A stretch of 63,923 nt of DNA, counting the filler, from Reclinomonas americana ATCC 50394 (lineage: Eukaryota): assembly GCA_048213135.1 (NCBI GenBank). It is 16 parts of 16 records of this genome, joined end to end, with 100 filler letters (N's around TTAATTAATTAA, not from the genome) between each part and the next. Parts side by side here need not be neighbours in the genome. Positions count along the whole stretch, not along the records: positions 30,324 to 37,946 come from AFZH01020626.1; 15 more parts are not named here. The stretch is one strand, 5' to 3'. A program made the translations under genes and the position numbers. Every line of letters begins with the position of its first letter. Position 1 is the stretch's first letter. Shown in pieces: positions 12,990-39,643 of this stretch. A model generated the notes under the pieces. That model did no database searches. It worked only from the letters and a program-made list of their open reading frames with translations, and was not told the origin of the DNA.

Positions 12990-14150
12990 CTATCTTCTGC
13001 CATCTTGCTCTACTCGCAACAGGACCAGTCGTGCCTCCTCTAGCATGAAACAACGCAACACGATTTCGACCAAACACCATTGCATGCCCTCCTCATCTGC
13101 ATCCTCGTCCATATCCACGTCCGCATCGCTGTCGACAGCTGCGAAATCACATTCAAGCTCGTGCTGCATGTCTTGCACGGTTGACAGTGCGTCACGTACA
13201 GCGACGACCTCCACAGCAGCCAGACCCAGTGGCGTGCCCCACAGTCGAATATCACCGTCGCTCCCTGCACTTACAATGTGCTGCTCATCGCGCGACACGG
13301 CGACGGCACGAACACGGTCCGTGTGTCCAACCAGACACTGAACTTGGTCGCCAGTCAGCAAGCACCACACGCGGACTGTGCAGTCCGCACTCCCACTCAC
13401 CACCTGCCTCGAGTTGGACAGCACAGCCACCGACCATACTGTGTCGGTGTGGCCGCGCAAGCGCATCGCTGGCATCTGCTGACGGTCGCCGGACGAAAAG
13501 TGCGTGCCCGACCACACGCAAACGGTGTGGTCAGCCGAGCCACTTGCCACAAAGTGATCGTTTGCAGACACTGCAATCGACTTGACGCCCTCCATGTGAC
13601 CCAGCAACTCGCATTCCACATCAAAAGTCCACAACGACACCACAGACAGCACGCCATTGTCGGTGCCGCACACCGCCAGGCTCCCACTATGCATCACAGC
13701 AATGGCGGTCACCACGTGACCGTTTCCCGTGATCACTCGCACATTATCTCCTGTCTCCATGTTCCACACATTGATCTTGCAGTCCGTCCCTCCACCTAAC
13801 ACCAGTTGTCGCTCAGCATGCACAGCCACCGACAAGATCCAGTATGGCGCACGTGACGGCGACATCATCAGCATCGGCTGCCGCGCAGTCAGCGACCACA
13901 TACGCACTCGGTTGTCTGCACCGCCCGTTACCAAGTGCTCACTGTCGGGGGTCGACGTCACCGCCAGCACCCAGCCACAATGCGCCTCATCCCAACACTC
14001 CAGCAACTCACCGGACAGCAGCGACCACACACGCAGCGAGCGGTCCATGCTGCCGCTCACAAAGGTGTCTGGGTGCGACGGATGACCACCTGTGGTCGTG
14101 ATTGACACCACTCCTTCGCACGGAATGCAAGCCGAGCGCCGCGTGAACAT
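12990..14150 (-). CDS. Intronless WD40-repeat protein (~7 repeats, acidic C-terminal tail)
   Basis: Uninterrupted ORF from ATG 14150 with repeated GH....V..V.......SGSxDxTVRVW units. Confidence 0.85.
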   Translation of the reverse strand: MFTRRSACIPCEGVVSITTTGGHPSHPDTFVSGSMDRSLRVWSLLSGELLECWDEAHCGWVLAVTSTPDSEHLVTGGADNRVRMWSLTARQPMLMMSPSRAPYWILSVAVHAERQLVLGGGTDCKINVWNMETGDNVRVITGNGHVVTAIAVMHSGSLAVCGTDNGVLSVVSLWTFDVECELLGHMEGVKSIAVSANDHFVASGSADHTVCVWSGTHFSSGDRQQMPAMRLRGHTDTVWSVAVLSNSRQVVSGSADCTVRVWCLLTGDQVQCLVGHTDRVRAVAVSRDEQHIVSAGSDGDIRLWGTPLGLAAVEVVAVRDALSTVQDMQHELECDFAAVDSDADVDMDEDADEEGMQWCLVEIVLRCFMLEEARLVLLRVEQDGRR

Positions 14151-14207
14151 CGATGGGGAGTGAGAAAGCGGACAAGAATTGAGCGGTGTGTCCTGCTTTC
14201 GACGTGA

Positions 14208-16769
14208 ATGGCCTTGGCGGGCAATGTGGACCACGAGTGTCTGCTGACATGGGAGAACCAGCTGGAGCTGCAGCACGACCCGGCGGCTCTGGCGCGCTCG
14301 GGTCGATCCAAGCTGACTGCAAAGATGTGAGTTGGGTGCGAGACTGACTGTTGACAGACATTCCGAACTCTCACCGAAGGACAGTGTGCTGCCGATCGCC
14401 GTGACTGTTGTGCTGGTGGTGCTGGTGATGCACTTCTTGTTGCGCAAGCACGAGATCATGCGGGCACGTTCTCGGTGGATGTTGTGGGCGCAGGTTGGTG
14501 TGTGTGTGCATTGATGACAGGAATGATCGCCTGGCGATGTTCGGATTTCTTGGTGTTGATATCCTTCTTTGCTTGCGCTTCCGTGCAGGCCATGTTTGCA
14601 TTGGGTGCCCTTATTGCTCGACTGGTGACGGCGACGGGATTTGTGGCCGGCGGGCAACTGCACCAGCTGTCACCGACTGCAATTGTTCGTGGTGCTCTCT
14701 CTCTCTCACACACACACACTCACCTGCTGCACTGCACCATGCCACGCCTCGTTGTTCACAGTGTGCATGCGATCGCTGTGTTGTACAGTGGGGCGAACTG
14801 ATTCCTTTCTTGGTCTTCATTCCGCTGGTGTTGGTCATCCCAATTGTGAGTCGTCGTCTGCCGCTCGCCGCATGTCTGCCGTGCACAGCTCTCACTTGTT
14901 GTTGTTGTTTGCAGCTGAGGGCGTTGAGTATGCAAGCGGTGTGGAGCTGATGTTTGTCACGCGTGTTGCTGATTTTCACGCTTTTGTTTGATGCAGAGTG
15001 CGCCTGTGGATAGTCTTTGATGCCGGCCGAGTGCGAGCACAAAGGAGACTATCACTGGTCAGTCTCACCAAGGCTATCGATGGTGGAGCGGAAGCCGAGA
15101 ATATGAATGCAAACACCGCAGTGGTGGCCCGTCTACGTCGTGCGCGAGCGTGGAGGTGGGTTGAGGGTGCGACGAGTTGTGATGCTCATCGAGCGGTGAC
15201 TTAATGACCACCGCTGCGTGCAGCGAGGGGCGCTTCCTGTTGATACTCGCCGGCTTGACTGTCGCGCTCACCATCATGTACGTCCTCGTGTTGGCCGTGG
15301 CCATTGGACCGTTCGTTTCGTTGCATGCCAGCGCGTGTGCGTGTGTGTGTGCATGTGTGTACCTCTCACGCCCTTCATGCACGAATAAGGTACCGATGCC
15401 CACCGAGAGCGAGGAGCAGACTGATATTGTGGCATTTGAGCGCGATGTTCTAGCCTGGTGTCCATTCTTCCACGCGGCCGCCACGAGTGAGAGTAACACA
15501 GTCGTAGCCAGTGCATACACGATTGTCACTCTGAGCGCGGGATACCTGTTGGTGCGCGCTGCAAGAGCATTGCTTGCTGTCTCCCAAGATGGCTGACATG
15601 TGCGTGCGACCTCAGTGTGCCTGGCTCATTCGCGGCGTGCGAGATGTGTTTTCGAACCGTATTGAGTTGCGTGAATGCGCCGACACATAATATCTCATGC
15701 AGGTTGTGACTGACTGTCATGATGCGCGTGTGTTGCTGCTGCACACTGCAGGCTGCTGGTGAACGCGATATTCAGCGTGCCGCTCAGTCTCACAGCCGCC
15801 ATATTGAGTCTGGTCGACTACAAGAAGCTTGTCGTTGGTCCTTTGCAGGTGGCGACCGATGTGATGATGCCGACATTGATTTGTGTGCATGTACTGGTGC
15901 CGATTGTGCTTCCACTGCTGCGACTACGTGCGTGGAACGCGACCCTCAAGGGGTTTTCTCGCGCACGCGAGGGCAGTCAACTCGGCGCAAGTTTGATGGA
16001 CGCGTCGACGACGCAGTTTGAGTACGTGATGAGCACGTCGGAGGCGCGGGAGCAGTTTCGACAGTTGCGCAGCGTACTTGCGAGGCACTGATCGATGAAT
16101 GCACTCACAGTTGTGTTGTGTAGGTATCTGGTCGGCGAGTTCAGGTGCGCACTCTGCCTAGATCTGTGTGCAATGTGCCGTCGTTCCTCAAAAAAGAGCA
16201 TGCTTGCCTCTCAGTGTGGAAAATCTCACATTCATGGACGCCATTGATAAACTCCGTGAGGTGAGGTCTCGTGCAACGCAGCGCAAGTCGCCACTGTCGC
16301 TCTCTCTTTCTCTGCTTCTCGTGTCCTCAGAGAGCACGACATTGCAGATGCCGTCGGCTTCGCGGTCAGCTGCCGATGTTCACCGACACGCGCACGCCAT
16401 GTACGAGGAGTACCTGAAAGAGAATGGTGGAACCCTGATGTGCACCAGCGTTGATGCTGCCCATTCAGTTGCTGACTGCTCGTTACGTGCTCACCAGGCA
16501 TCAGCGAACTGAACTTGTCGGGTGGCATTCTGTTGCGTATTCGACAGGCGTTCGAGGGTGCTCATCAGCCACAGACGTCTCCCACTGAGGGAGTGACTGC
16601 CGTCGTGGAGAGCTACCTGTCGCTCTTTGATGGGGCCGTGAAGAGTGTCATGAGAACGTTGCGTGCCGACAGCTTCCCGCGCTTCGTGGCCAGCCAGGCG
16701 TGGCAGCAGTGGTCATCCGGACATACTGAAATGGTGCGACTTGTGGCGGAGAACGGACTGGTTGGCTGA
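14208..16769 (+). CDS. 7TM-RGS protein (seven transmembrane helices fused to a C-terminal RGS domain), multi-exon
   Basis: Seven hydrophobic segments with IMRARS after TM1 and RGVRDVFSNRIEL before TM6. RGS box FRQYLVGEFSVENLTF...YEEYL...ELNLS...LFDGAVKSVMRTLRADSFPRF. Confidence 0.82.
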
Positions 16770-18339: not shown

Positions 18340-21300
18340 TCATGCAACACTGCCCTCTCCCCGCCGCTGCGCCGCCGCCAACGCCACAATCTCATCACGC
18401 AACGCCTCCGCACTCACCGCCTCCTCGCGCACGGCATTATCGTCGCGAGTGCGCACCGACACACGTCCCTCGGCGGCCTCACGGTCGCCGACCACTGCAA
18501 TGTAGTTGAATTGGAGGAGTTGGGCGCGACGGATGCGCTTGCCAAGTGTCTCGGCCGACGAGTCGACCTCCACGTGCAGGCCCGACGAGTGCAGCAGCTG
18601 TTCGACGGCGTGGCACTGTGCCATGTGTGCGTCGTTGGCTTGCGAGACGGGGAGGATGGCGACTTGGCGTGGGCTGATCCAGACGGGCCAGCGGCCGCTG
18701 GTGTGCTCGATGAGGATGGCCATGAAGCGTTCGACACTGCCGAGGATCGCGCGGTGGATCATGACGGGGCGGCGGAGGGAGCCGTCGCGGTCTTGGTAGG
18801 TGAGGTCGAAGCGGGAGGGCAACTACAGGGGAAGGGAAATTAGGGGAAGGGTGAGGGGGAAGGGGGTGAGGAGGGAAGGGGTGAGGAGGGAAGGGGTGAG
18901 GAGGGAAGGGGTGAGGAGGGAAGGGGTGAGGAGGGAAGGGGTGAGGAGGGAAGGGGTGAGGACGGAAGGGAGTGAGGAGGGAAGGGGTGAGGAGGGAAGG
19001 GGTGAGGACGGAAGGGATGAGGAGGGAAGGGGTGAGGAGGGAGGGGGTGAGGAGGGAAGANNNNNNNNNNNNNNNNNNNNNNNNNNNNNNNNNNNNNNNN
19101 NNNNTTAATTAATTAANNNNNNNNNNNNNNNNNNNNNNNNNNNNNNNNNNNNNNNNNNNNTCTCTCTCGCGCGCGCGCACTTAATCATCATCCCTCCGTC
19201 GATATCTTTGTTTGCCTACTTCCGTCTCTCAGTCCATTCGCGTTCTCCCTCTGTCGATATCTCTGTTTGCCTCCTTCCTTCTCTCAGTTCCCCTCAGTAT
19301 TCGCGTTCTCTCCCTTGAGCTTCTCAGTATCGCACTCTCTCTCTCTCTCTCTCTCTCTCTCACCTGGAAATCCAACTGCACGGTCGCACACTGGTGCTCC
19401 CTCTGCAGCGCATCCCGCACGATAATGTCGATTTTCGGCCCGTAAAACGCTCCGTCGCCCGGGTTGAGGGTCCACGAGAGACCCGAGTTCTCCAGGCACG
19501 ACTGCAGCGCCTTTTCCGCACGATCCCACACCTCCAGCGAGCCGACGTAGTGATCGGGGCGGGTGGAGAAGCGGGCGCTGATCGACATGCCAAACACGTG
19601 GTACAGGTGGCGCACGAAATCGATGCAGTCGGCAATCTCGCCGCCAATCTGCTCCTCGGCGCAGAAAATGTGCGCGTCGTCCTGTCGGAAGAGGCGCAGG
19701 CGCGTGAGGCCGCCGAGGGCGCCACTGGCCTCGTTGCTGCGGCAGGGGGAAGTTGGAGAAGGGAGGTAAGGGAGGGGGGAAAGGGTGTGTGAGAGGAGAG
19801 AGAGAGGGAGAGAGAGAAAAGAGGGGGAGGAGTCAAGAGTGAAGGAGGAGCAGGGAGAGAAGGAGGGAGTGAAGAGCGAGGTGAGGAATGGAGGAAAGGG
19901 GTGGGAGGAGTGGGGTGCGATGAGTTGGGATGGGGTGCAAGGGAAGTGAAAGTAAGGACGGGAATAGTCAGGGATGGGAGTGAGAGATTTAGAAGAGGGG
20001 GAGGAGATGGAGGGAGAGTGGAGAAGAGGTAGGGCAGAGGAGAGGGAGGAAAAGGGGGAGGAGGGAGGGGAGGAAAGGGGTGAGAGGAGTGGAATGGGAT
20101 GGGGAAACAAACACTGGTACTCACCGATGCAAGGGGCTAAAGTCGGCCCATCGCACAGGCAGGTCGCGGTACGACCAGCTGCGGCTCTGGAAGAGCAGGC
20201 AGTGGCCGGGGCAGTTCATGGGTTTCAGACCCATTTCCGCCTCGTGGTCGTGCGGGTGGGAGTGGGAGCAGGCTTCGGTGGTGGTGGGTGGCGTGGTGAA
20301 GGAGCTGACACGGAACATGTTTTCGCGGTAGTTTTCCCAGTGGCCGGAGGTTTGCCAGACCTGTGGGAGGGAGATGAGGGGGACATGAGGGGAAGAGGGA
20401 TAGCGGGGAAGGGGGAAAGGGGGGAAGGTGGAAGGAGGGGGAAGGAGGGGAAGGAGAGGAGAGAGGAGAGGAGAGGAGAGGAGAGGAGAGGAGANNNNNN
20501 NNNNNNNNNNNNNNNNNNNNNNNNNNNNNNNNNNNNNNTTAATTAATTAANNNNNNNNNNNNNNNNNNNNNNNNNNNNNNNNNNNNNNNNNNNNAGGAGA
20601 AAAGAGATGAACGAACGAGAAACGAAGAGACGACGAGAGGAGAGGGAAAGAGAAGAGAGTGGTTGAGAAAGAGAAAGAAGAGAATATAAGAAGAGGAGAG
20701 AAACATGATGAGAAGAGGAGAGACAAGAGATGAGATGCGAATAGACAAGAGATGAGACGAGGAGTGAAGAGAAGAGAGAACTGAACAGAAGAGAAGAGAA
20801 GACAGGAGACTGGAAGACTAGGAGAAGAGAAGAGAAGAAAGAGAAAAAGAGCTGAGAAGAAGAGAAGAGAAGAAGACAAAATTGGGAAAGGAGAGGAGAC
20901 AAGAGATGAGAGAAGATGAGAAGAGACGAGAGAAGATGTGAACAGAACAGAAATGGAGGGAAATGAAAGAGACAAGAAAAAGCAATGAATATGAGGGACG
21001 CGAGGGGACGGAGAGCATTACAGGGGCAAGACACGGGAAAGGGGAATAAATGGACTGAGAAAGTGAGAGACAACAGCTGGAACAAGATGGAGAGAATGCA
21101 CGATTCGCGAGAGCAGTCAATTCGTTGACCACAGCGAGAACTTGAGGCAGAGCTTCCCTCCCCTCACCTCCTTGTTGAAAACCAGCGGCGACATGACCTC
21201 CTGATAACCCCTCGCGCGACATTGCTGCGAATGAAATTCATGAGCAACAACAACACCATCTCCTCGATCTCCATTACAAGCCATGGGGTACCTCGCGCAC

Positions 21301-24300
21301 AAAATCCTCCAGTCTTCGATAGATTCGCGTGCCGTGGGGCGCAAAGAACGCCGAGCCTGGTGAGGCTGGGTGGAAGAAGAAGAGATTCTGCGCCTTGCCG
21401 ACCACGCGGTGGTCGGCCTTGGCACGTTCCTCGCGCAGTTTTTGCCAGTCTTTGAGTTGGGCGGTGGAGGGGAAGGCCACACCGTAGACGCGTTGGACTT
21501 TGGTGCCGTTCTGCGAGGGAGAGAGAGGGAGAAGGGGATGGGGGAAAGGCGGAATGAGGGAGAGGGAGAGGGAAGGGGCAGGGAGAGGGAGAGAGAAGAA
21601 GAGAGAGGAAAGGACAAAAGAAGGGAGGGAAAGAGGAGAGAGGCTGAGAAGAAAGAGATAAGAGAGGCGACGAGATGAAAAGAAAGATATGAGATGTGAC
21701 GTTTGAGTGGGAGATGGAAGAGAGGACGACGAGTGAGAGAGGGAAGAGAGGATGGCGAGTGGGAGAGGGAAGAGAGGGCGACGAGTGGGAGAGGGAAGAG
21801 AGGACGATGAGTGGGAGAGGGAAGAGAGGACGGTGAGTGGGAGAGAGGGAAGAGAGAACGATGAGTGGGAGAGGGAAGAGAGGATGAGAGGGGGAGAGAG
21901 GACGGTGAGTGAGAGAGAGATGAAAAGAAAAGATAAGAGATGTGACGTTTGAGTGGAGATGGAAGAGAGGACGACGAGTGGGAGAGGGAAGAGAGGATGG
22001 CGAGTGGGAGAGGGAAGAGAGGACTGCGAGGGGGAGAGAGGAGGAGAGGATGGAGTGAGAGAGGGAAGAGAGGACGGTGAGTGGGAGAGGGAAGAGAGGA
22101 TGAGAGGGGGAGAGAGGTCGGTGAGTGAGAGATGAAAAGAAAAGATAAGAGATGTGACGTTTGAGTGGGAGATAGAGAGAGGACGACGAGTGTGAGAGGG
22201 AAGAGAGGATGGCGAGTGACAGAGGGAAGAGAGGATGACGAGTGGGAGAGGGAAGAGAGGACGATGAGTGGGAGAGGGAAGAGAGGACGATGAGTAACAG
22301 AGGGAAGAGAGGACGAGGAGTGGGAGAGGGAAGAGAGGACAGTGAGGGGGAGAGGGAAGAGAGGACGATGAGTGGGAGAGGGAAGAGAGGACGATGATGG
22401 AGGCAGGGAAGAGAGGACGATGAATGGGAGAGGGAAGAGAGGACATTGGGGAAAGAAGGACGAGGAGTGAGAAAGAATGGGAGAGGATGCGCGGCCAAGG
22501 GAAGTGAACAGAACGAGAGAGCATGTGTGACAGGGATTACGAAAAGCGATGTGAGGAGTGAGGGATACGCGCGATCTATATCCTCTCTCCCATCCCCCCT
22601 CTCTTTTCTCTCTCTCTCTCTCATGCTCCTCGTCCTCTCTTCCCTCTCTCGCATTCAAACCTCACTCTCTCATTCTGTCTCGCTTTCCCCACCATCTGTC
22701 ACGCACGCTCTCTCCTTCTGGCCTCTCCTCCCTCTCCCCTTCTACCCTCCCAACTCACCAGCGGTCCCGCATCATGCCACTGCACCTCCGACACCCGGGT
22801 CACCGCAAACGCCTTGACGGCGTCGGCCGAGTGCAGGTGCGGACCGCGGCACAAGTCGATCAGGGTGCCGCTGCGGTAGAGCGTCACCTGCTCGGTGGCG
22901 GGGATGCGATCGATCATGGCCAGCTTGAAGGGGTTGTAGGCGAAGAGCTCGCGGGCGAACTCGCGCGACACGAGCATGCGCTCGAAGACCTTGCCGGACT
23001 TTTGGCGGAGAAAGTCGGCGATGTGCTGTTCGAGGGCGCGCATGTCGTCCTCGTGGATGGTGGTATGGGGGGCGGGGAGTTGCACGTCGTAGAAGAATTC
23101 GCCTTCGCGGAGGGGTGGGCCGTCGCAGAGGAGGGCGCCGGGGAAGTGGTGTTCGAGTGACTGCACAAAGGGGAAGGGTGATGAGAAGGGGAAGGGGGAT
23201 AAAAGGGGAAGGGGGATAAAAGGGGAAGGGGGAGGGCAAGGTCAGCCTTTTTTGCAACGAGAATCAGCGCGAGAGAACAGGACTCCAAAGAAGCGGCAGG
23301 GATCAACGCGACAAGGAATGAGAGTGCTCTCACACACACTCAGAACGCAAGTCTACAACATACAGCCCTCCTTCTCTCGCTGACAAGTATGCAGCAACTG
23401 CATACCGCTGCCTCTTCACCCTCAGATTGCACGTCTGCAGCGCAAACATCCCTCTCTCCAAGCTCCAGAACGCAAATCTACAATGCAAACAAGGCGCTCT
23501 CTCCACATCCCACTCACTGTAACAAGTCTGCAGCACAACGAAGTCACTATCACTCCAATACTCAGGACGCCAGCCCACCTCCTCTGAATCCCGTTCAAGG
23601 CACGTCTGCAGCGCCAGCAACGCACACTCCTTCCCATTTCTTCATCCTTCTCTGAATCACAAAGCAAGTCTGCACTACAAAAGGCGATCTCTCCACATCC
23701 CTCTCACCAAATCGAGTCTGCAGCAANNNNNNNNNNNNNNNNNNNNNNNNNNNNNNNNNNNNNNNNNNNNTTAATTAATTAANNNNNNNNNNNNNNNNNN
23801 NNNNNNNNNNNNNNNNNNNNNNNNNNCTACAAAGCGCTGTCTCTCCAACACTCAGAATGCAAGCCTACAATACACAGCCCTCATTCTCTGCATCCCTCTC
23901 ACCATGACAAATCTGCAGCAAGCGCTGTCTCTTCTCTGACTCAGATTGCACGTCTGCAGCGCAAACATGTTCTCCCTCTCTCCAAATCCCAGAACGCAAG
24001 TCTGCAATGCACACAAGGCGCTCTCTCCACATCCCTCTCACCAAAACAAGTCTGCAGCAATTACAAAAAGCGCTGTCTCTCCAACATTCAGAATGCGTCT
24101 ACAATGTAGCCCTCCTTCTCTGCATCCCTCTCACCGTGACAAATCTGCAGCAACTGCATAGCGCTGTCTCTTCTCTGACTTAGATTGCACGTCTGCAGCG
24201 CAAACATGTTCCCTCTCGCCATTCCTCTCTCCAAGCTCCAGAACGCTAGGCTACAATGCAAACAAGGCGCTCTCTCGACATCCCTCTCTCCCTGACAAGT

Positions 24301-30223: not shown

Positions 30224-32229
30224 NNNNNNNNNNNNNNNNNNNNNNNNNNNNNNNNNNNNNNNNNNNNTTAATTAATTAANNNNNNNNNNNNNNNNNNNNN
30301 NNNNNNNNNNNNNNNNNNNNNNNGCCAGCGCAGCCACCACCACATCATCATCACCAGCATGTGCAGCAACAGGCAGGGCCTGCGGGTGTTGGTGCGGCGG
30401 CGGCGGCGGCGGCTCCCGGTGGTGTGCAGTTCCTTGCGGGGCACGACGATGTGCAGCGGTTTGTGGTGATGCAGCAGTTGTTGAGGTTGCTGGCGGAGGG
30501 GCAGCAACAGCAGCAGCAGCAGCAGCAGCAAATGGTGAGTGGGGTTGGTGTGAGGAGATGGCGTAGGCGATGTGCCGCTGAGTGTTCATCGTCTTTTCTG
30601 TGTTGTCTCTCGCTCTCTGTGCGAGTGTGCGTGTGCGTGAGAGAGGGAGAGTATCGCTTTCATGCACTGCCGCAAACGTGGTTATTTCTGGTTGACAGTG
30701 TCTCATTGGATATCTCTCGTCCACTATTCTTTCTTGTGCACCCCACTCGCGATGTGTTGCTCTCTCTCTCAAATACTCAGAAACGATCTCTTTCGGGCAC
30801 TTTCATTCTCGTTGCTGTGTTTTTTCTTTGTTTGTCTCTCCCCTCTCTCTTTATTGTTTCTCTTCTCCTCTCTGATTGCTCCCGTCTCGTGCTATTCAAA
30901 GGCTCTCCTTCTGTCTCTGTCGGACGATCCCCGTGCTGCGTCGCTGTGATGCTCTGATGCAGTGACCTGTTCCGCCGTTTCTTCGTTCCTCTGTTGCTCC
31001 AATTTTTTCGGGCATTCTGATTCTTTTGTTGGGCTTCTTTCACTGGGATGCAGTGACCTTCCACCATTTCTTCGTTCCTCTGCTGCGCACATTTTATCGG
31101 GTACTTTGATTCTTTTGTTGGGCTTCTTTCACTGGGATGCAGTGACCTGTTCCACCATTTCTTCGTTCATCTGCTGCTCACATTTTATCGGGTACTTTGA
31201 CTCTTTGCTGGCCTTCTTTCGCTGGGATGCAGTGACCTGTTCCACCATTTCTTCGTTCCTCTGCTGCGCTGTCATGAACACCCAGAAGCGATTTCCGTGT
31301 ACTGATCACTTTTCCTTCTTTCTCTCTGCGTCTCTCAGATTTTCTTTCTCTCTCTATGTTTCTCTCAGACTTTCTTTCTTTCTGAGTCTCTCTTTCTCTC
31401 TGTCTCTCTCTGTCCCTCTCAGTCTATCTTTTCCTCACTCTGTTTCTCCCAGACTTTCTTTTTTTCTTCTCTCTTTCTCTCTCTCTCTCTCTCTTACTCT
31501 TTGTGTTCCTTCATAGTTCGCGCGCACTCTGGCAGTCACGAATTGTTCCTGTGTTCTTTTGCCCTCTCTCTTTCTTTCTTGCTTCATTGCTCTCTCACTG
31601 TCGCTCTCCCCCGGTCTCTTTCTGTTCCTCGCTCGTGTCGCTCTCCCCCGTACTCTGTCTGTTCTTCGTTCGTGTCACTCTTCTCCCCGGTCATTTCATT
31701 TAATCTCAGCTTCCTTCCCCTTGTTCTCTTCTCTCACAGGGCCGCCACGCACACGACCCACTGGCCCTCGGCGGCCTGCTCGCGGCACTTCACCAACAGC
31801 AACAGCAGCAAGCACCCGGCATGTTCATCGCCAGACCGCACGCCCGCTCGCCGCTGCCGCGCCACTTGTTGCGACAGTTGCCGGTGTTCGAGTGTCATGC
31901 AGCGAATTTGCCTGCCGATCATCAGTCGTGCGAGATTTGTTTGGGGCCGTATGAGGAGGGCGAGATGTTGAGGACGTTGCCGTGCATGTTGCGTGGGGTG
32001 GTGGTGGGAATGGGCAAGGGAGTGATGGGTGCTTTGGGGCTTATGATTGTGGAGCAGGCATTTTTATCATCAAGAGTGCGTCGATGAATGGTTGACGACG
32101 CGCGATCGGTCGTGTCCGCTGTGTAAGGTGCGGGGGGAAGGGTGTGTGTGTGTGTGTGGGAGTGTGTGGAAGGGGGACTCATGGGTGGGGGTGGTGTAGG
32201 ATAAAATCACACTGGAGCCCAGTGAGTGA
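28262..32229 (+). CDS. Membrane-associated RING-H2 E3 ubiquitin ligase, multi-exon across gap
   Basis: Two N-terminal hydrophobic segments, a Q-rich linker, then spliced CEICLGPYEEGEMLRTLPCMHFYHQECVDEWLTTRDRSCPLCK. The 3' end is approximate. Confidence 0.8.
30950..31270. repeat. ~90-bp tandem repeat x4 in a RING gene intron
   Basis: GATGCAGTGACCT recurs at 30956, 31047, 31136 and 31226. Confidence 0.85.
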
Positions 32230-32403: not shown

Positions 32404-35400
32404 CTACGACGGCCCAGCAGAAGGCGCACTTACTGCGGCTAGCGTTCCCGCAGTCTCACAAAGCCGCCTCAACTCGTCGTGCACGTACGATGCCGACACA
32501 CGTGTCGCTTGTGGCCTCTGAGTCACACGAATGGTGAGTGTGCTGATCACCATTTCCAATTGCTAGACCAGCCGCACGCAACCCAGCACTGTCGAATGAG
32601 ACTGCGAATGTCTTCCGGCACTGTTGCCCTTACAGCTTCGTCGTCAAGATTGCCAGGTGGGATGCCATCGTGCATGTGGCGCATGATTGCGGCCAGCGCC
32701 ACCCCGGTGAACGGTTCCCGACGAGTGGCGATGAACCAAAGCAGCGAACCGAGTCCGTACACATCTGCTCGTTCATCGTACTGCATATTGCGGAAGAAGG
32801 GTGAGAAATCCAGAGCCACTCTTACTTGTTCCACATTTGTGTGACAGTCGTGAGCGCACCTCTTGATCCAACATGGCCTCGGGTGCAGCGTACGCCGCCG
32901 TGCCGTGATTCGACTGCATCTTCCCGAGAGTGCCGTGAATCCTGGCCTCCCCAAAGTCGCACACCTTGGCCACAAGTCGGTCCTCGCTAATGAGAATGTC
33001 TGTGGGCATGCAGAAGGTAGCAGAGTCAGCAGTGAGAAAGAATTGCACAGCGACAGACCTGGAAGATGTCTCCACTGCTCTCTCTCTCTCTCACACCTAA
33101 TTGGCTCACATTCTCTCTCATTCTCGCTTTCTCGAATCAAGATATTATAATCCTCATTTCTTGCAGTCTCAGTTTCACCCATCATTCAACCCATGACGCA
33201 ACTCTGCGGCTTGAGATCTCGATGCACCACTCTACGTGAGTGCATGTGCACCACTGCCGATGCCACTTGTTCGAGCAGACAAAGCAGGCCTAGAGTTGCC
33301 ATATGCTCATCCTTCACCAGGTCGTGCAGCGTCTCGGCAATGCCATCCTCGTCTTCATGACCAACGTATGCAAGAACAAGACCGAGACCACTTGGGTCGT
33401 CTTCGCACACAGCCATCAGTTTCACAATGTGTGGGTGACTGTGTGCGGATGCACGTGAGCGGTGGCAGTCAGTATTCAAGCGCAGTAATCATGAATGTAC
33501 GCAACTCCAGTTGCATCAACAGAGAGTGCTCGTTCTCGAAACTCTCGTGAATGCGTTTCCAGTCCGCCGATTGTGCATCTCGAGCTTGCGGCCTGACCAG
33601 GTATCGCTTGTATGCCACAATTTGCGATACCCCACCAACATGGAGCGTGGCACGGGAAACAGCATTTTGACCTGCAAATGAATGTAGATGCAATGAGCTT
33701 GAAATTGATGGTGAGCATAGTCCTCAAGAAAAAGAGCAGAGATCACACCGATGGCAATTTGCCTCGCAGGCGACAGGACAGAGAAAGACACTGTAGGTGC
33801 GCGCATGGCGAGTCTGGCTGCTCTGGCTGTCACCAACTGGGCCGTCACATCGATGTGACATACATCTATGCCAAAGGAGAATGATATGAGAAAATGTACG
33901 CGTCAATTGGCACGTGAAGACGCAACTGTCGTATGCTTGAAAAAGACGACAGATGCTCTCGTGTCCGTCGGGGAACAGCGTGTGCAGTGAGTCGCGGACT
34001 AGCCGCATGACGCTCACATACTCTGCGTCTTCGAGGGCAGAGAGACGGGCCAAGTGAGAGACGCGGTGACGCACATGTCGCAGGTTCTCCACTGCTTGAA
34101 TCTGCAAAAAGCACAGAGAAAAATATGATCCCCATAGATGATGATGATGCAACAGCAGAGCATACCTTGGTGGAGTCGGCGAGGAGTTGCACCGCGAGTC
34201 GGTCCCTGTTTGCGGCTGGATCCATACGGACGAGGCTCTCCAGCAGGTCCACATCACGACATTCAGCGGCAGGAACGAATGTTGTGTACAGCAGCAGAGT
34301 GCTCAGCAGTGACACGTCCATGCCGGTTGTTTCTCCACTTCGCTTGAACTCGCGGATTGCCTCGTAGTTGGAGGGGAAAAGCTCGACGGAGCGCATGCGA
34401 ATGTTGCCACGCTTGTCCAGAGTCATTCGGCAGTATCTGTGGGGCAACAATGAGAACAAAGGACACAACCAAGCACAGAGAGAATAAGATCCAGTACCTC
34501 GGTGGTGGAGCTGGGAAGCACAGCTGCTCAATGTCAAATTCGCCAGGGAAAAACTCAACGACGAGTTGTTGCAGGAGGGAGCCAAGTGCCAGTGGAATGA
34601 TTTCGTGAACGACTTCGGTGAGCATGAGGATAGGGCGGCGGTCGCTGGGTGTTTGACAACGAGTGAGTAGGATCACAAGACACCACACGCAACAAAATGG
34701 GGGTGGACAAACCTGAGAAAGTCCATGTGGAAGAGGGCGCGCAGCTGGCCTTCCACCTCGTCGACTCTATGTTGCAACTGGACGCGGTCTGCGATAGCCG
34801 CATGAAGTTGACCCGCATAAAGGGAATTCTTCTCCCGCTCTGTGGCAAGAGTGTGTTCCAACTGGTCAATGAGCTGACGAAGCTGGACCACAGTGCTTTC
34901 GTTCTCTCGGCGCTTCCGATCCCACTCTTGCTGTTGCCACTCTCGCTCTTGATTTGCTGCGTCGAGCTCGCGTTGGAGTTGAGCGACAATGGCCGCATGC
35001 GCAGCATCCGACTGCATTTCCGGCGAGCGATCAGCGACGGTGAAAGAACATGGATCTGAGGAATACCAAAAGGCGAATTAACTCACCTGATACACTGTGC
35101 CAGCTGGGACAGCAAGCGCGTCGAACAGGTCAGTCAAGGTTCAAGCCAACAATGTACAATACTGGATTGAAGATGTCGAATACAGATCTAACGTACCTGC
35201 AGAAAAAGACACCGGGAGCGGCATCTGATCTTGCTGCGACTGAAGAAGTGGCGCCTGTACAGCGATGTGGTCAAGCAACTCGGCTACTTGCTGCTTGCCG
35301 TTGCCGCGGGCTAAATGAGCTGCGGTCCTCCCAGCCTTGTCGACAAGGGGTATGAAATCGGGATAGCGAGTGGCAAGGAGTCGCACAATGGCTTCATGGC

Positions 35401-37474
35401 CATTCGCGGCTGCAAAATGCATAGCTGTGCAGCGTGAATGCCTCGCACTGTCGTTTGTGACCGCCCACACCATCTCCGGTGGACATCGTCGCTCATCGGC
35501 AAGCAACCACTCCACAACGTGAAGTCGCCCCCAGCTGGCAGACGTCATGAGCGAAGTCCAGCCGCCATCAGTGACTAATCGCGCGAGTTGTGGCCCCACG
35601 CCACTCTCTTCCCACAAATACGTCAACACAAGGAGGTGACCTCTGTAAGCGGCCCAGTAAAACGACGAGCCGCCGCCATCGCCCATCTCCTCTCTGCGCA
35701 GCAGAACATGCGCGCCCTCGCGCGCCACCAAGCCGCGAAGCGCCTCCACGTCTCCATCTCCTGCCATTTCGCACGCCTTCTTCCTCTGCTGCTGAGGAAG
35801 AGAGCTTGCGGTACCGGGGGCTACATTGGCGACTGCTACACACGAGAATAATAAATGAGAACTTCGCATAGTACGAAACTAGCACAACAGATGCACATAA
35901 AGGAACTGGGATAGCATCAACACGCACCTCCAGATTGCATTTGTTGTGATAACTGTTCCACTTCATGTGGAAGCGACTGTGGAGCAAGGAGTTCAATTAA
36001 TTCGGCCACTCGTTGAATGCCAAATTCTCGTGTCCACTGGGATGCCGTTTTGCCAGCCTTATTAGCCATCGGGATGAGGTCTGGAAAGCGAGCGGCGAGA
36101 AGCTGTACAATGGCCTCATGCCCCCAAATAGCAGCATAATGTAACACAGTGGATTGAGGATGGTTGGAGCGACCATTGGTGACAGCGAGCACCATTTCCG
36201 GCGGACATCGTCGTCCATCGGCAAGCATCCACCCCACCACCTGCAGATGCCCGTTGCTTGCTGCAATCATAAGTGGTGTCGTATTCCAATCGGATACCAT
36301 CAGAGCAAGTTGTGACCCCACACCACTCTCCTCCCACAAATACTCCAACACGGGCAGATGGCCTTTCCACGCAGCACAGTAATATGCAGAACAGCCGAGC
36401 TCGTCCATCTCTTCTCTCTTCAGTAAAACGCGCGCGCCCTCGTGCGCCGTCAACTCGCGCAATCCCCTGACGTCACCGTCAAGAGCTACTTGCCACGCTG
36501 CCTTCCGACGTTGCGGCGGCGGAGACCTTGCTGCAAGCGTGGAGAAACAATTACGTATACAACACACCTTGATTGGACTTTGCACTTCAGAACGACGCAC
36601 CTTCTAGTAGAAGCGACTGTGGAGACAGAACGAAACCTGGCTGTGGCTGTTGTTGACGTGGTGGTAATGACTGTGCCGCGCGGATGGCGAGCACGTCGGC
36701 CGCATGTCCGTTGCCGATGTTTCGTGCCCACTCAGCCGCCGTCATGCCAACCTTGTTGACAATGGGAATGAGGTGGGGGAAGCGAGTGGCGAGGATTCGC
36801 ACAATGGCTACGTGGCCGTTCATCGCAGCATAATGAAGCGCAGTGGAATGTGGATTGCCGTCTCGATCATTTGTAACCGCCCGCACCATCGCCGTCGGAC
36901 ATCGTCGCTCATCAGCCAGCAGCCACTCCACCACTTGCAAATGCCCATTATTGGCAGCCGCTATCAGCGGCGTCCAGCCAGAGTCGGTGACCATTTGCGC
37001 GAGTTGTGGCCCGACACCACTTCCCTCCCACAGATACTCCAACACGGAGAGATGTCCTTCGCGAGCGGCAAAACAGAATGCCGAGCTTCCATTCACATCC
37101 ATTTCCTCCCTGAGCAGCAGAGTCTGTGCGCCCTCACTCGCCACCAACTCGCGCAGCGCCTTCACATCTGGAACCCAAGCCAAGTACCACGCCTTCTGTC
37201 TCTGATGTGCTGGCGGAGGCAGTGGCGGCAATGGGAGTGGCAGTGGCACTAGCGGCGGCGGTGGTGGTGGTGGTGGCGGTGGTGGCGGTGGAGGAGGAGG
37301 AGGCGGTAAAGCACTGAGCACATCACAGAAAAACTCAGACGCACAGCACAGCACAATGTCCATTTTTCATCAGACAGACCTGTCGTCTTCACCGCCGCCC
37401 GCTGCGCCATCTTGCGCGGCATCCACCCTCTGCACGAAGAAATAGTTCACGGCACTGTGAAACGCGGAACCCAT
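32404..37474 (-). CDS. Ankyrin-repeat (three tandem modules) / coiled-coil / HEPN (DZIP3-like, RxxxxH) / TKL-like protein kinase fusion
   Basis: In-frame GT-AG splicing from ATG 37474 (MGSAFHS...) to TAG 32404: poly-P, three ankyrin exons, a coiled coil, MDVSLLSTLLLY...AVENLRHVRHRVSH...YVSVMRLVRDSL, then kinase VAYK, HPHIVKL, HRDLKPQN, DFG, GTAAYAAPE, DVYGLG, LIRQCW. Confidence 0.82.
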
Positions 37475-37588: not shown

Positions 37589-39643
37589 ATGCCAAAGAAA
37601 GGAAAGAAGGGAAAGGTGCGTCTTACTCTCTCCTCCTTCTCCGCTCCCCCTCTCACTCTTCTTCACAGGGCAAGAAGGCCAAGGAGGTCGAGGTGTACAA
37701 CTCGCCCTTCCTGCTCCCACCCGGACTGGACGAGGCCAAAGCGCTGTTTGAGACAGCGGAGCGCATTGTGACACTGCATCTGCGATTGGTCACGGTGAGA
37801 GAGAAGGAGAGAAGAGGGAGAGAGAGAGAGAGGAGGGCAAAGGGAGAGGATAAGAGAGCAAGAGAGAGAAGGGTACCAGGAGAGAGCGCAGGGCGATGGG
37901 GCTGAGATGAAGGGACAATCATCCTGTGAATGATCGCGATCAAGGCNNNNNNNNNNNNNNNNNNNNNNNNNNNNNNNNNNNNNNNNNNNNTTAATTAATT
38001 AANNNNNNNNNNNNNNNNNNNNNNNNNNNNNNNNNNNNNNNNNNNNCATAGAGAGAGAGAGAGAGAGAGTAAGGCAGGGAGAGTGAACATCACAACGAGG
38101 GACACATCTTAGAACTGCGAGATCACCTTCTGCTGATTGCGACTTTCCCTGTCCCTCACCCACCCTCCCCCTCTCACCCAGTGGCACTTCCTCGACTTCG
38201 ACGCCTTCCTCCCCGTCAGCGCCAACCTCCGCGTCGTGCAAGAAATCATCTCACAACACCACTCGGGCGCCGTCGGCCAAATGACGCTGTGGAAGGCGCA
38301 GGTGCACCCGAAGAACGTGCTCAAGGATCACTTGCGCACCCTGGAGGACATTTTTAAGTTCTCCGAGCAGTCGTCTGGAGGTGAGTCGGGAAGGGGGGGA
38401 GGAAGGGGGAAAGGGAGAGGGAAACGGAGAGCGATAGGGGAAGAGATGTGGAGAGTTATCGTCGAGCAAGGGTAGAGGGTGGAGGGAGACACTGATCACA
38501 CGCACACACCGATCAAGGGTTGAGGGGTGGAGAGAGACACTGATTGCACGCACACACCGATCAAGGGTCAAGGGGTGGAGAGAGACACTGATTGCACACA
38601 CACATCGATCAACGGTCGAGGGGTGGAGTGAGAAACTGATCACACGCACACATCGATCAAGGGTAGAGGGTGGAGGAAAGACACTGATTGCACACTGACC
38701 AAGGGATAAGAGTGGAGAGACATTGATTGCACACGCGCACACCGATCTTTATCGCTTTTCGTGGGTCGTCCCTAAAATATTTTGGGCTTTCAACCCTTGA
38801 TGTCGAGGGTTGAATCGAGAGGGTCGAGGGTCCATTCCCGAGGGTTGAGGGTCGTTCCTTGGGGGTCACGGGTTGCTGTCTACTTCTCATCTTCACCAAC
38901 GACACGCAATTCGGTCAATGGCGCACAAGGGTGAAAGGGGAATAGACCACGCAGGGTTGAGGCTGGAGGAAGAGTTGAGATTCGATGGAGACACAAGTCG
39001 CATGCACGTCTATCTTCTTCTCATTCCGTGGGCCGTCCCTAAAATATTTTCCTATTTAACCCTTGCTGTCGAGGGTTGAATCGAGAGGGTCGATGGTCAT
39101 GGTCAGAGGGTTGAGGGTCTTTCCTTCGGGGTCAAGGGTTCTGTCTGTTTCCCATCTTCACCAACTACACGCACTTTGGCTGATAGTACACGAAGCACAG
39201 ACCACGCAGGGTTGAGATTGGTGGAAAGGAAGAGTTGAGGTTGGATGGAGACGCAAGTCACACGCACATCTATCTGTATTGCTTTCCGTGGGCCGTCCCT
39301 AAAATATTTTGGCCTTTCAACCCTTGCTGTCGAGGGTTGAAGACAGAGGGTCAAGGGTTATGGTCAGAGGGTTGAGGGTCTTGCCTTGAGGGTCGGGGGT
39401 TGCTGCCCTTTGTGAGGATTGAGGGAGAGATTGGTCCGTAAACATTTTATTACACTGTTGCCTCACCGCCGCCGCCTCTGCAGACGAGATGCCGGAGAAA
39501 CTCGAGTGCACCATCTTTTACGACTTCCAGCCCGTGGCACCCGACTGTCCACTGCTGCTGTCAAGGTACACTGCGCAAACGGCTCTGCAAGCTGACTTTC
39601 TCTTTCCTGTTCAACTGCCCTGCATTCATTCTTTTTCAGGCTG
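37589..39643 (+). CDS. Small protein with Lys-rich N-terminus and possible ubiquitin-like fold, multi-exon
   Basis: MPKKGKKGK|GKKAKE...VTLHLRLVT|WHFLDF...IISQHHSGAVGQMTLWK...PKNVL...|...TIFYDFQPVAPDCPLLL. The fold is inferred and the 3' end is uncertain. Confidence 0.55.
38470..39400. repeat. Intronic tandem repeats (~48 bp x6, then ~265 bp x3) rich in GAGGGT
   Basis: GGGTGGAGAGAGACACTGATTGCACGCACACACCGATCAAGGGT units, then GTGGGYCGTCCCTAAAATATTT near 38761, 39028 and 39288. Confidence 0.8.

Follow-up and report, generated by a model that had tools for sequence, protein, structure and literature searches.

The question raised by this locus is whether a protist gene that joins ankyrin repeats, a helical domain and a protein kinase encodes a sensor-effector nuclease comparable to RNase L, or a signalling kinase of a more familiar kind. 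The window analysed here is a stretch of 63,923 nucleotides (nt) from Reclinomonas americana ATCC 50394 (GenBank assembly GCA_048213135.1), and the gene lies on its minus strand at positions 32404-37474. The original prediction had described it as an RNase L-like fusion of ankyrin repeats, a HEPN domain and a kinase. We favour another reading, to which we give a probability of about one half: the locus would be one gene encoding a scaffolded Ser/Thr signalling kinase of 1279 residues, with an orphan helical domain next to the kinase. From the N-terminus, the protein would consist of three ankyrin modules duplicated in tandem, each encoded by its own exon, a coiled coil some 100 residues long, the helical domain and the kinase. 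Among the points in favour of the generic ankyrin-repeat kinase, the R-x4-H motif expected of a HEPN nuclease occurs in the protein at chance level, and the helical exons, searched singly, match no family and have no detectable relatives. It is common for ankyrin repeats to precede a kinase in the same protein.

The predicted gene contains 13 exons and 12 introns, and its coding sequence of 3840 nt (1279 codons) starts with an ATG at 37474, ends with a TAG at 32404-32406 and has no internal stop, the splice sites having been selected by us so that the frame stays open. All 12 introns are of the GT-AG type with C/TAG acceptors, their lengths range from 61 to 255 nt and their GC content (0.41-0.52) is below that of the exons. 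The single spliceable open reading frame (ORF) between these limits, and the succession of three ankyrin modules, coiled coil, helical domain and kinase, had both been anticipated, and they are borne out, the former by this open model and the latter by Pfam matches, heptads and motifs. The least certain exon is e1 (37380..37474; 31 codons, MGSAF...), which is defined by an ORF and by the donor CAG/GTCTGT; an alternative start is provided by an in-frame ATG (37362-37360) within the ORF that follows e1. For the middle exons (cc, h1, h2 and h3), the frame of the model presented the best codon-usage likelihood of the three possible frames in four cases out of four, the codon table having been derived from the exons for the ankyrin modules and the kinase. 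Four donors of the gene have GTTGCGT in common, preceded by A in three introns and by G in the fourth. The donor word AGTTGCGT is found 10 times in the window versus 2.15 times expected, a count reached by none of 100 shuffles, and three of these copies are donors of the gene (33196-33203, 33499-33506 and 33920-33927, minus strand). GTTGCGT has the look of an unusual 5' splice-site consensus that is typical of the lineage.

Could this model be an artefact, in which the ankyrin exons and those for the coiled coil, the helical domain and the kinase are parts of two neighbouring genes, or the locus is mis-assembled or a pseudogene? We consider this unlikely. Such an explanation could draw on the way the splice sites were picked for an open frame, on the weakly supported exon e1, on the nature of the window, in which small contigs are strung together artificially, and on the public runs: the look-up found no RNA run with the locus, and the sole public run with part of it is genomic, with a single 312-nt contig (32613-32924) that crosses the intron between k3 and k4 unspliced. 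It has to face, however, the presence of the entire gene inside one contig (30324-37946), which ends only 472 nt beyond the ATG, and the small size of the intron separating ank3 from cc, which measures just 141 nt and is in phase 1 on both sides. The uniform GT-AG borders and acceptors, the low GC content of the introns relative to the exons, the enrichment of the donor word over the whole window and the 3840 nt free of stops also argue against it. No second copy of the gene was detected when the model was compared with the window by tblastn.

The N-terminal half of the protein is built from ankyrin repeats. Exon ank1 (36601..37313, minus strand, as are all exons of the gene; residues 32-269) encodes a proline-rich stretch followed by module 1, and exons ank2 (35928..36530; residues 270-470) and ank3 (35197..35835; residues 471-683) encode modules 2 and 3. 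The three large ORFs match Pfam Ank_2 (PF12796) with E-values of 7.9e-20, 1e-24 and 2.8e-16, that is, with 71.7, 87.3 and 60.3 bits, all above the cut-off of 27.3 bits. Identity to module 1 amounts to 58% for module 2 and 53% for module 3, and exons ank2 and ank3 are duplicates of the whole ankyrin module. Since the lengths of these two exons (603 and 639 nt) are multiples of three and both are in phase 1-1, either could be skipped without frameshift, and isoforms with one, two or three ankyrin modules and an intact frame are possible. A search of the PDB with the ankyrin profile gave DARPins and natural ankyrin chains as top matches, also for the module of ank1, and RNase L was absent from the best 60 matches. 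A search of 5.8e9 proteins with the ankyrin module brought up no close relative, only five generic ankyrin proteins, of which the best covered 32% of the query at 39% identity. The following exon, cc (34713..35055; residues 684-797), encodes a coiled-coil-like helix. The highest-ranking heptad windows anywhere in the protein lie in it (residues 736-793), no other exon carries the coiled-coil signal, and a stretch free of proline, longer than any other in the protein, extends over residues 696-801; coiled-coil families of Pfam matched this exon at sub-threshold level only (best E = 4e-4).

At the other end, five exons encode the kinase. According to the model and to motif positions, k1 (33506..33671) carries part of the N-lobe, with the beta-3 motif VAYK (residue 1014, lysine K1017) and the alpha-C helix; k2 (33203..33438) extends from the hinge to the catalytic loop HRDLKPQN (residue 1123), whose last residue lies beyond the exon junction (HRDLKPQ/N); k3 (32860..32999) covers the activation segment from DFG (residue 1144) to APE (residue 1168); k4 (32583..32780) covers the C-lobe and is identified by its kinase matches in the PDB; k5 (32404..32517) provides, in the model, the end of the kinase and a tail of 37 residues. 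Exon k2 alone reaches 42.3 bits with Pfam Pkinase (PF00069), for a cut-off of 31.7 bits, and the ORF containing k3 matches Pkinase with E = 2.1e-6. The catalytic lysine and the HRD, DFG and APE motifs are intact. No glycine is present at the position of the G-loop (residues about 991-998), so ATP binding may be atypical. The best PDB matches of k2 are IRE1 (E = 2.6e-5), Snf1 (E = 5.4e-5) and CDPK, in a range of E from about 3e-5 to 6e-5, and the margin of IRE1 over Snf1, CDPK and AMPK is marginal. Those of k4 are TAK1 (E = 4.4e-5), then PknB, WNK1, RIPK1 and MLKL, and the sole PDB match of k3 is Rad53 (E = 1.2e-3). Judging from its sequence, the kinase appears generic and partly tyrosine kinase-like (TKL-like), without a clear tie to the IRE1/RNase L branch, and the predicted gene product as a whole belongs to the ankyrin-repeat and protein-kinase families.

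How far, then, does the likeness to RNase L go? In both proteins, ankyrin repeats are located N-terminal of a kinase fold in one polypeptide, and the same three kinds of parts would be present if the helical domain were a HEPN domain. The nuclease of RNase L is the KEN domain, C-terminal of a pseudokinase, as stated in PMC3710099, whereas the candidate nuclease is here N-terminal of the kinase. The protein stops 37 residues after exon k4, the DNA further downstream is occupied by a convergent RING gene, and these 37 residues show no match to Ribonuc_2-5A, the Pfam family of KEN, which was not matched by any of the 10 ORFs scanned. The absence of a KEN domain means that the gene is not a member of the kinase-KEN family of RNase L and IRE1. 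Further differences are the kinase itself, a pseudokinase in RNase L but one that keeps Lys, HRD and DFG here, and the presence here of three duplicated ankyrin modules and of a coiled coil. With IRE1, the protein shares the coupling of a Ser/Thr kinase to a candidate helical nuclease, and IRE1 heads the PDB matches of k2 (E = 2.6e-5), but the gene has neither a lumenal or transmembrane part nor a KEN domain, and k4 prefers TAK1, PknB, WNK1 and RIPK1. Of the label "RNase L-like", what survives is an analogy of parts; a KEN domain is absent, and the kinase does not appear specific for IRE1/RNase L. Under the reading that we prefer, the gene would be of the general kind of the ankyrin-repeat kinases, which include ILK, TNNI3K, RIPK4/ANKK1 and DAPK and likewise combine ankyrin repeats with a TKL-like or related kinase. 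The protein differs from them in the triplication of its ankyrin module, in its long coiled coil and in the orphan helical domain of 190 residues inserted between the repeats and the kinase.

It is on this helical domain that the interpretation of the gene depends. The helical region (residues 798-995, 198 residues, for an orphan domain of about 190) stands directly against the N-lobe of the kinase and is spread over three exons, as the original prediction had stated: h1 (34498..34644; residues 798-846), which is the first part of the domain and was assigned by its best codon-usage frame, h2 (34166..34436; residues 847-937), which is the middle part and carries DVSLLSTLL at residue 887, and h3 (33927..34101; residues 938-995), which contains the end of the domain, with RHRVSH at residues 948-953, and in which the kinase N-lobe begins. 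The introns that split it measure 61 and 64 nt. The region observed at 34644-33927 corresponds to the predicted interval 33927-34645 except for its outer limit. Searched singly, h1, h2 and h3 failed to match any family of Pfam (PF18738, the HEPN_DZIP3 family, included), PADLOC or NCBIfam at E<=10, and the two longer ORFs that contain helical exons gave no Pfam family at E<=1. When h2 (90 residues) was compared by phmmer with 1.84e9 representative proteins, neither a DZIP3-family protein nor a genuine relative was found. The lone match at E<=1e-3 was to a HEAT-repeat protein of Nostoc, whose repeat was hit six times, and we rejected this match as spurious. A word-indexed protein search of h2 gave none at E<=0.01, and sequence searches of the PDB gave none for h2 and only matches at E>0.5 for h3. 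On the basis of these single-exon searches, the domain would be a lineage-restricted all-alpha module without detectable relatives.

Structure predictions were made with AlphaFold2 without alignment. For h2, the model shows a short hairpin followed by four helices, with a low mean predicted local distance difference test (pLDDT) of 54.5. For h3, a fragment of 58 residues folded alone, the pLDDT is 85.6 and the model consists of a helix (2-20), a loop (21-24) and two further helices (25-42 and 44-57); in the full-length protein, the last of these is probably part of the kinase N-lobe. RHRVSH occupies residues 11-16 of the helix 2-20, near its C-terminal end. Fold searches with this fragment gave generic helical matches only.

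A helical domain adjoining a TKL-type kinase on its N-terminal side recalls MLKL, which is composed of a four-helix bundle, a brace and a pseudokinase, and the gene could be imagined as encoding an MLKL-like executioner, whose membrane-targeting bundle would bind acidic lipids through its basic helix and whose oligomers would permeabilise membranes. The strongly basic helix at residues 945-956 would suit such a function, and k4 matches RIPK1 and MLKL among others in the PDB (E about 6e-3), the match to MLKL being weak. We nevertheless regard this explanation as highly improbable: no MLKL or HeLo-type family of Pfam was matched at E<=10, no sequence or profile link to MLKL was found for the helical part, TAK1, PknB and WNK1 score as well as MLKL or above it, and the kinase retains its catalytic residues and is predicted to be catalytically competent. 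The helical bundle of MLKL is itself N-terminal, while the one described here is internal, behind about 800 residues.

The explanation that competes most directly with the generic kinase is a dual enzyme, in which residues about 798-985 form a divergent HEPN domain, of the DZIP3 type or another, with the order ankyrin-coiled coil-HEPN-kinase. Binding of a ligand by the ankyrin modules and pairing through the coiled coil would bring two HEPN domains together to form a composite, metal-independent RNase site with R948, H949 and H953, and the adjacent kinase would regulate this RNase or signal in parallel. We hold this explanation to be possible, in a tentative way. HEPN domains are described in PMC3710099 as four-helix up-down folds with an R-x4-6-H motif, in which the residue following R is typically polar (N, D or H), and with a conserved acidic residue upstream, often within E-x3-[KR]. 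R-H-R-V-S-H had been predicted at 34054-34071, and translation confirms that RHRVSH is encoded exactly there on the minus strand.

Several points speak in favour of a HEPN domain and thereby weigh against our preferred reading, to which the negative result of the look-up for RNA runs is likewise unfavourable. The motif has a polar residue, H, after R (R-H-x3-H), as in the description of PMC3710099; in the model of the h3 fragment (pLDDT 85.6) it is located near the end of a helix and is followed by the loop 21-24 and a second, long helix, which is consistent with the arrangement of HEPN helices 3 and 4 in the same source. The low-confidence model of h2 is all-alpha. The segment RHVRHRVSHLAR (residues 945-956), which contains the motif, is the 12-mer of the protein densest in R, K and H (7 of 12 residues), and hence its most basic and His-rich one. 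The pattern D..LL..LL followed by R[NDH]...H was obtained in 4e-5 of shuffles of the domain and in 2.5e-4 of shuffles of the whole protein, frequencies that refer to a two-part pattern set post hoc, after viewing the sequence, and which we take to be a signature of DZIP3. Two other traits that we associate with the DZIP3 family, an LFP-like element upstream and an acidic-aromatic pair after the H, also seem to agree with the sequence, which is a lead and not a test. Finally, the profile searches were run on single exons, which reduces their power, and a divergent HEPN domain could escape them.

Against these points stand the counts for the motif taken alone. The protein contains five R-x4-H words, for 3.72 in shuffles, which is the chance level, and R[NDH]xxxH turned up in 6.5-6.7% of shuffles of the 198-residue region (two runs). 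An E-x3-[KR] word, ESLVR, is present at residue 913, upstream of the motif, and another at residue 985, after it; such words are common, and ESLVR is at most a candidate for the conserved acidic residue of HEPN domains, so that its presence proves nothing. The post hoc choice of the two-part pattern weakens the shuffle result, no family was matched by h1, h2 and h3 at E<=10 or by the two ORFs at E<=1, and h2 found no DZIP3-family protein among the 1.84e9 representatives. No homologue was found in which the conservation of R948 and H953 could be followed.

Comparison with the DZIP3/hRUL138 proteins, the HEPN proteins of family PF18738 from animals and Capsaspora, shows likenesses and differences. 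Like them, the protein is multidomain and carries R-polar-x3-H. Their HEPN domain is fused to ankyrin, TPR, NACHT, Death, CARD, LRR or RING domains, and the family is expanded in the unicellular Capsaspora (Table 1 of PMC3710099); an NLR-like protein of Aplysia offers an example of such a fusion (PMC9334734). Ankyrin is thus among the known fusion partners, which favours a HEPN domain here, but a fusion of the DZIP3 family to a kinase is not listed in that Table 1, and none of the helical exons, scanned singly, matched PF18738. The PF18738 profile has 144 positions and a cut-off of 27 bits, a score that was exceeded in none of 401 cyanobacterial genomes and none of 14 control genomes. A STAND-type ATPase of 699 residues from Nostoc (L081, G001:C101:15492-18701) reached 17.2 bits over positions 53-124 of the profile, without R-x4-H in that part, and this match is probably due to chance. 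The literature naming PF18738 or HEPN_DZIP3, among the matches listed, concerns animals or is a general survey of HEPN domains. For an ankyrin-HEPN-kinase architecture in a unicellular eukaryote, literature searches, judged from their listings, gave no publication. Of the proposed DZIP3-type HEPN domain, the R-polar-x3-H motif and its helix-loop-helix placement in the h3 fragment remain as weak support, and neither single-exon profiles, nor homology, nor PDB matches add to it.

If the HEPN assignment were correct, the gene could be an independently assembled analogue of RNase L, with a DZIP3-like HEPN domain between the coiled coil and an active kinase and with three ankyrin sensors; a ligand-driven dimer may form the HEPN site, and the kinase may act as co-effector or timer. 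We think that this scenario is possible but less likely than the scaffolded kinase. For the latter, the following mechanism can be proposed. The ligand of the ankyrin modules would be a protein or a small molecule. Dimers or oligomers would form through the coiled coil together with the helical domain, and the kinase would then be switched on by trans-autophosphorylation. The helical domain would be a regulatory or ligand-binding module next to the kinase, its last-but-one helix bearing the most basic and His-rich surface. The analysis shows the exon structure, the ankyrin and kinase identities, the motif and the lack of detectable relatives of the helical part; oligomerisation, activation and any biological role of the product are what we infer here, and an immune or cell-death role would be pure inference.

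The surroundings of the gene have to be considered in the light of how the window is made. It contains 15 spacers between 17400 and 62825 (for example 30224-30323 and 37947-38046), each consisting of 44 N, TTAATTAATTAA and 44 N. Because the TTAATTAATTAA spacers are six-frame stop linkers, the window must have been put together artificially from contigs about 1.3-7.6 kb long. The order and adjacency of contigs across spacers are not to be trusted. The only trustworthy neighbour of the gene is the RING gene of the same contig, a convergent RING-H2 gene (31704-32199, plus strand; zf-RING_11, E = 1e-4) whose end faces the 3' end of the kinase gene. Its motif begins with CEICL...LPC and goes on with HFYHQECVDEWL...CPLC in a second frame, a distribution of the two halves that suggests an intron. 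DZIP3 is itself a RING protein, and nothing links the neighbouring RING gene to the ankyrin-kinase gene. Tandem repeats flank the gene at 30956-31267 (89 bp x 3.5, 90% matches), where the array is in an open frame of the plus strand, at 38463-38688 (48 bp x 4.7) and at 38732-39405 (261 bp x 2.6), and several contig ends are CT/GA microsatellites. Elsewhere in the window, a threonyl-tRNA synthetase exon is found at 19229-20215 (minus strand; tRNA-synt_2b, E = 1.1e-15). Its best matches, with at most 64% identity, come from animals, fungi, oomycetes and a giant virus, and the two top-scoring ones (56-58% identity) are records labelled as insect and as "UNVERIFIED_CONTAM" fish. An ORF encoding a WD40 propeller lies at 12990-14669 (minus strand). 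The segment 20001-22000 presents a strong strand asymmetry (GC skew 0.53, AT skew 0.47), and long low-complexity open frames without Pfam match extend over 21117-22661. A search of Rfam gave no match in the window.

What the gene means depends on the identity of its helical domain. If this domain is a HEPN RNase, the combination of sensor repeats, kinase and HEPN would have arisen at least twice, with different domain orders, and a dimerisation-activated RNase coupled to a kinase fold would appear as a preferred solution in responses to stress or viruses. Immunity-like architectures with a DZIP3-type HEPN domain would then extend beyond animals and Capsaspora, and the gene would present the first case of a HEPN domain that precedes a kinase, as well as a branch of HEPN domains so remote from the known families that single-exon sequence searches miss it. 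If the domain is not a HEPN domain, the gene encodes a kinase with a domain of 190 residues that has no detectable relative in 1.84 billion representative proteins and with an ankyrin module triplicated exon by exon, which is of modest interest. The kind of gene, an ankyrin-repeat kinase, is known, and the orphan helical domain would be its new part.

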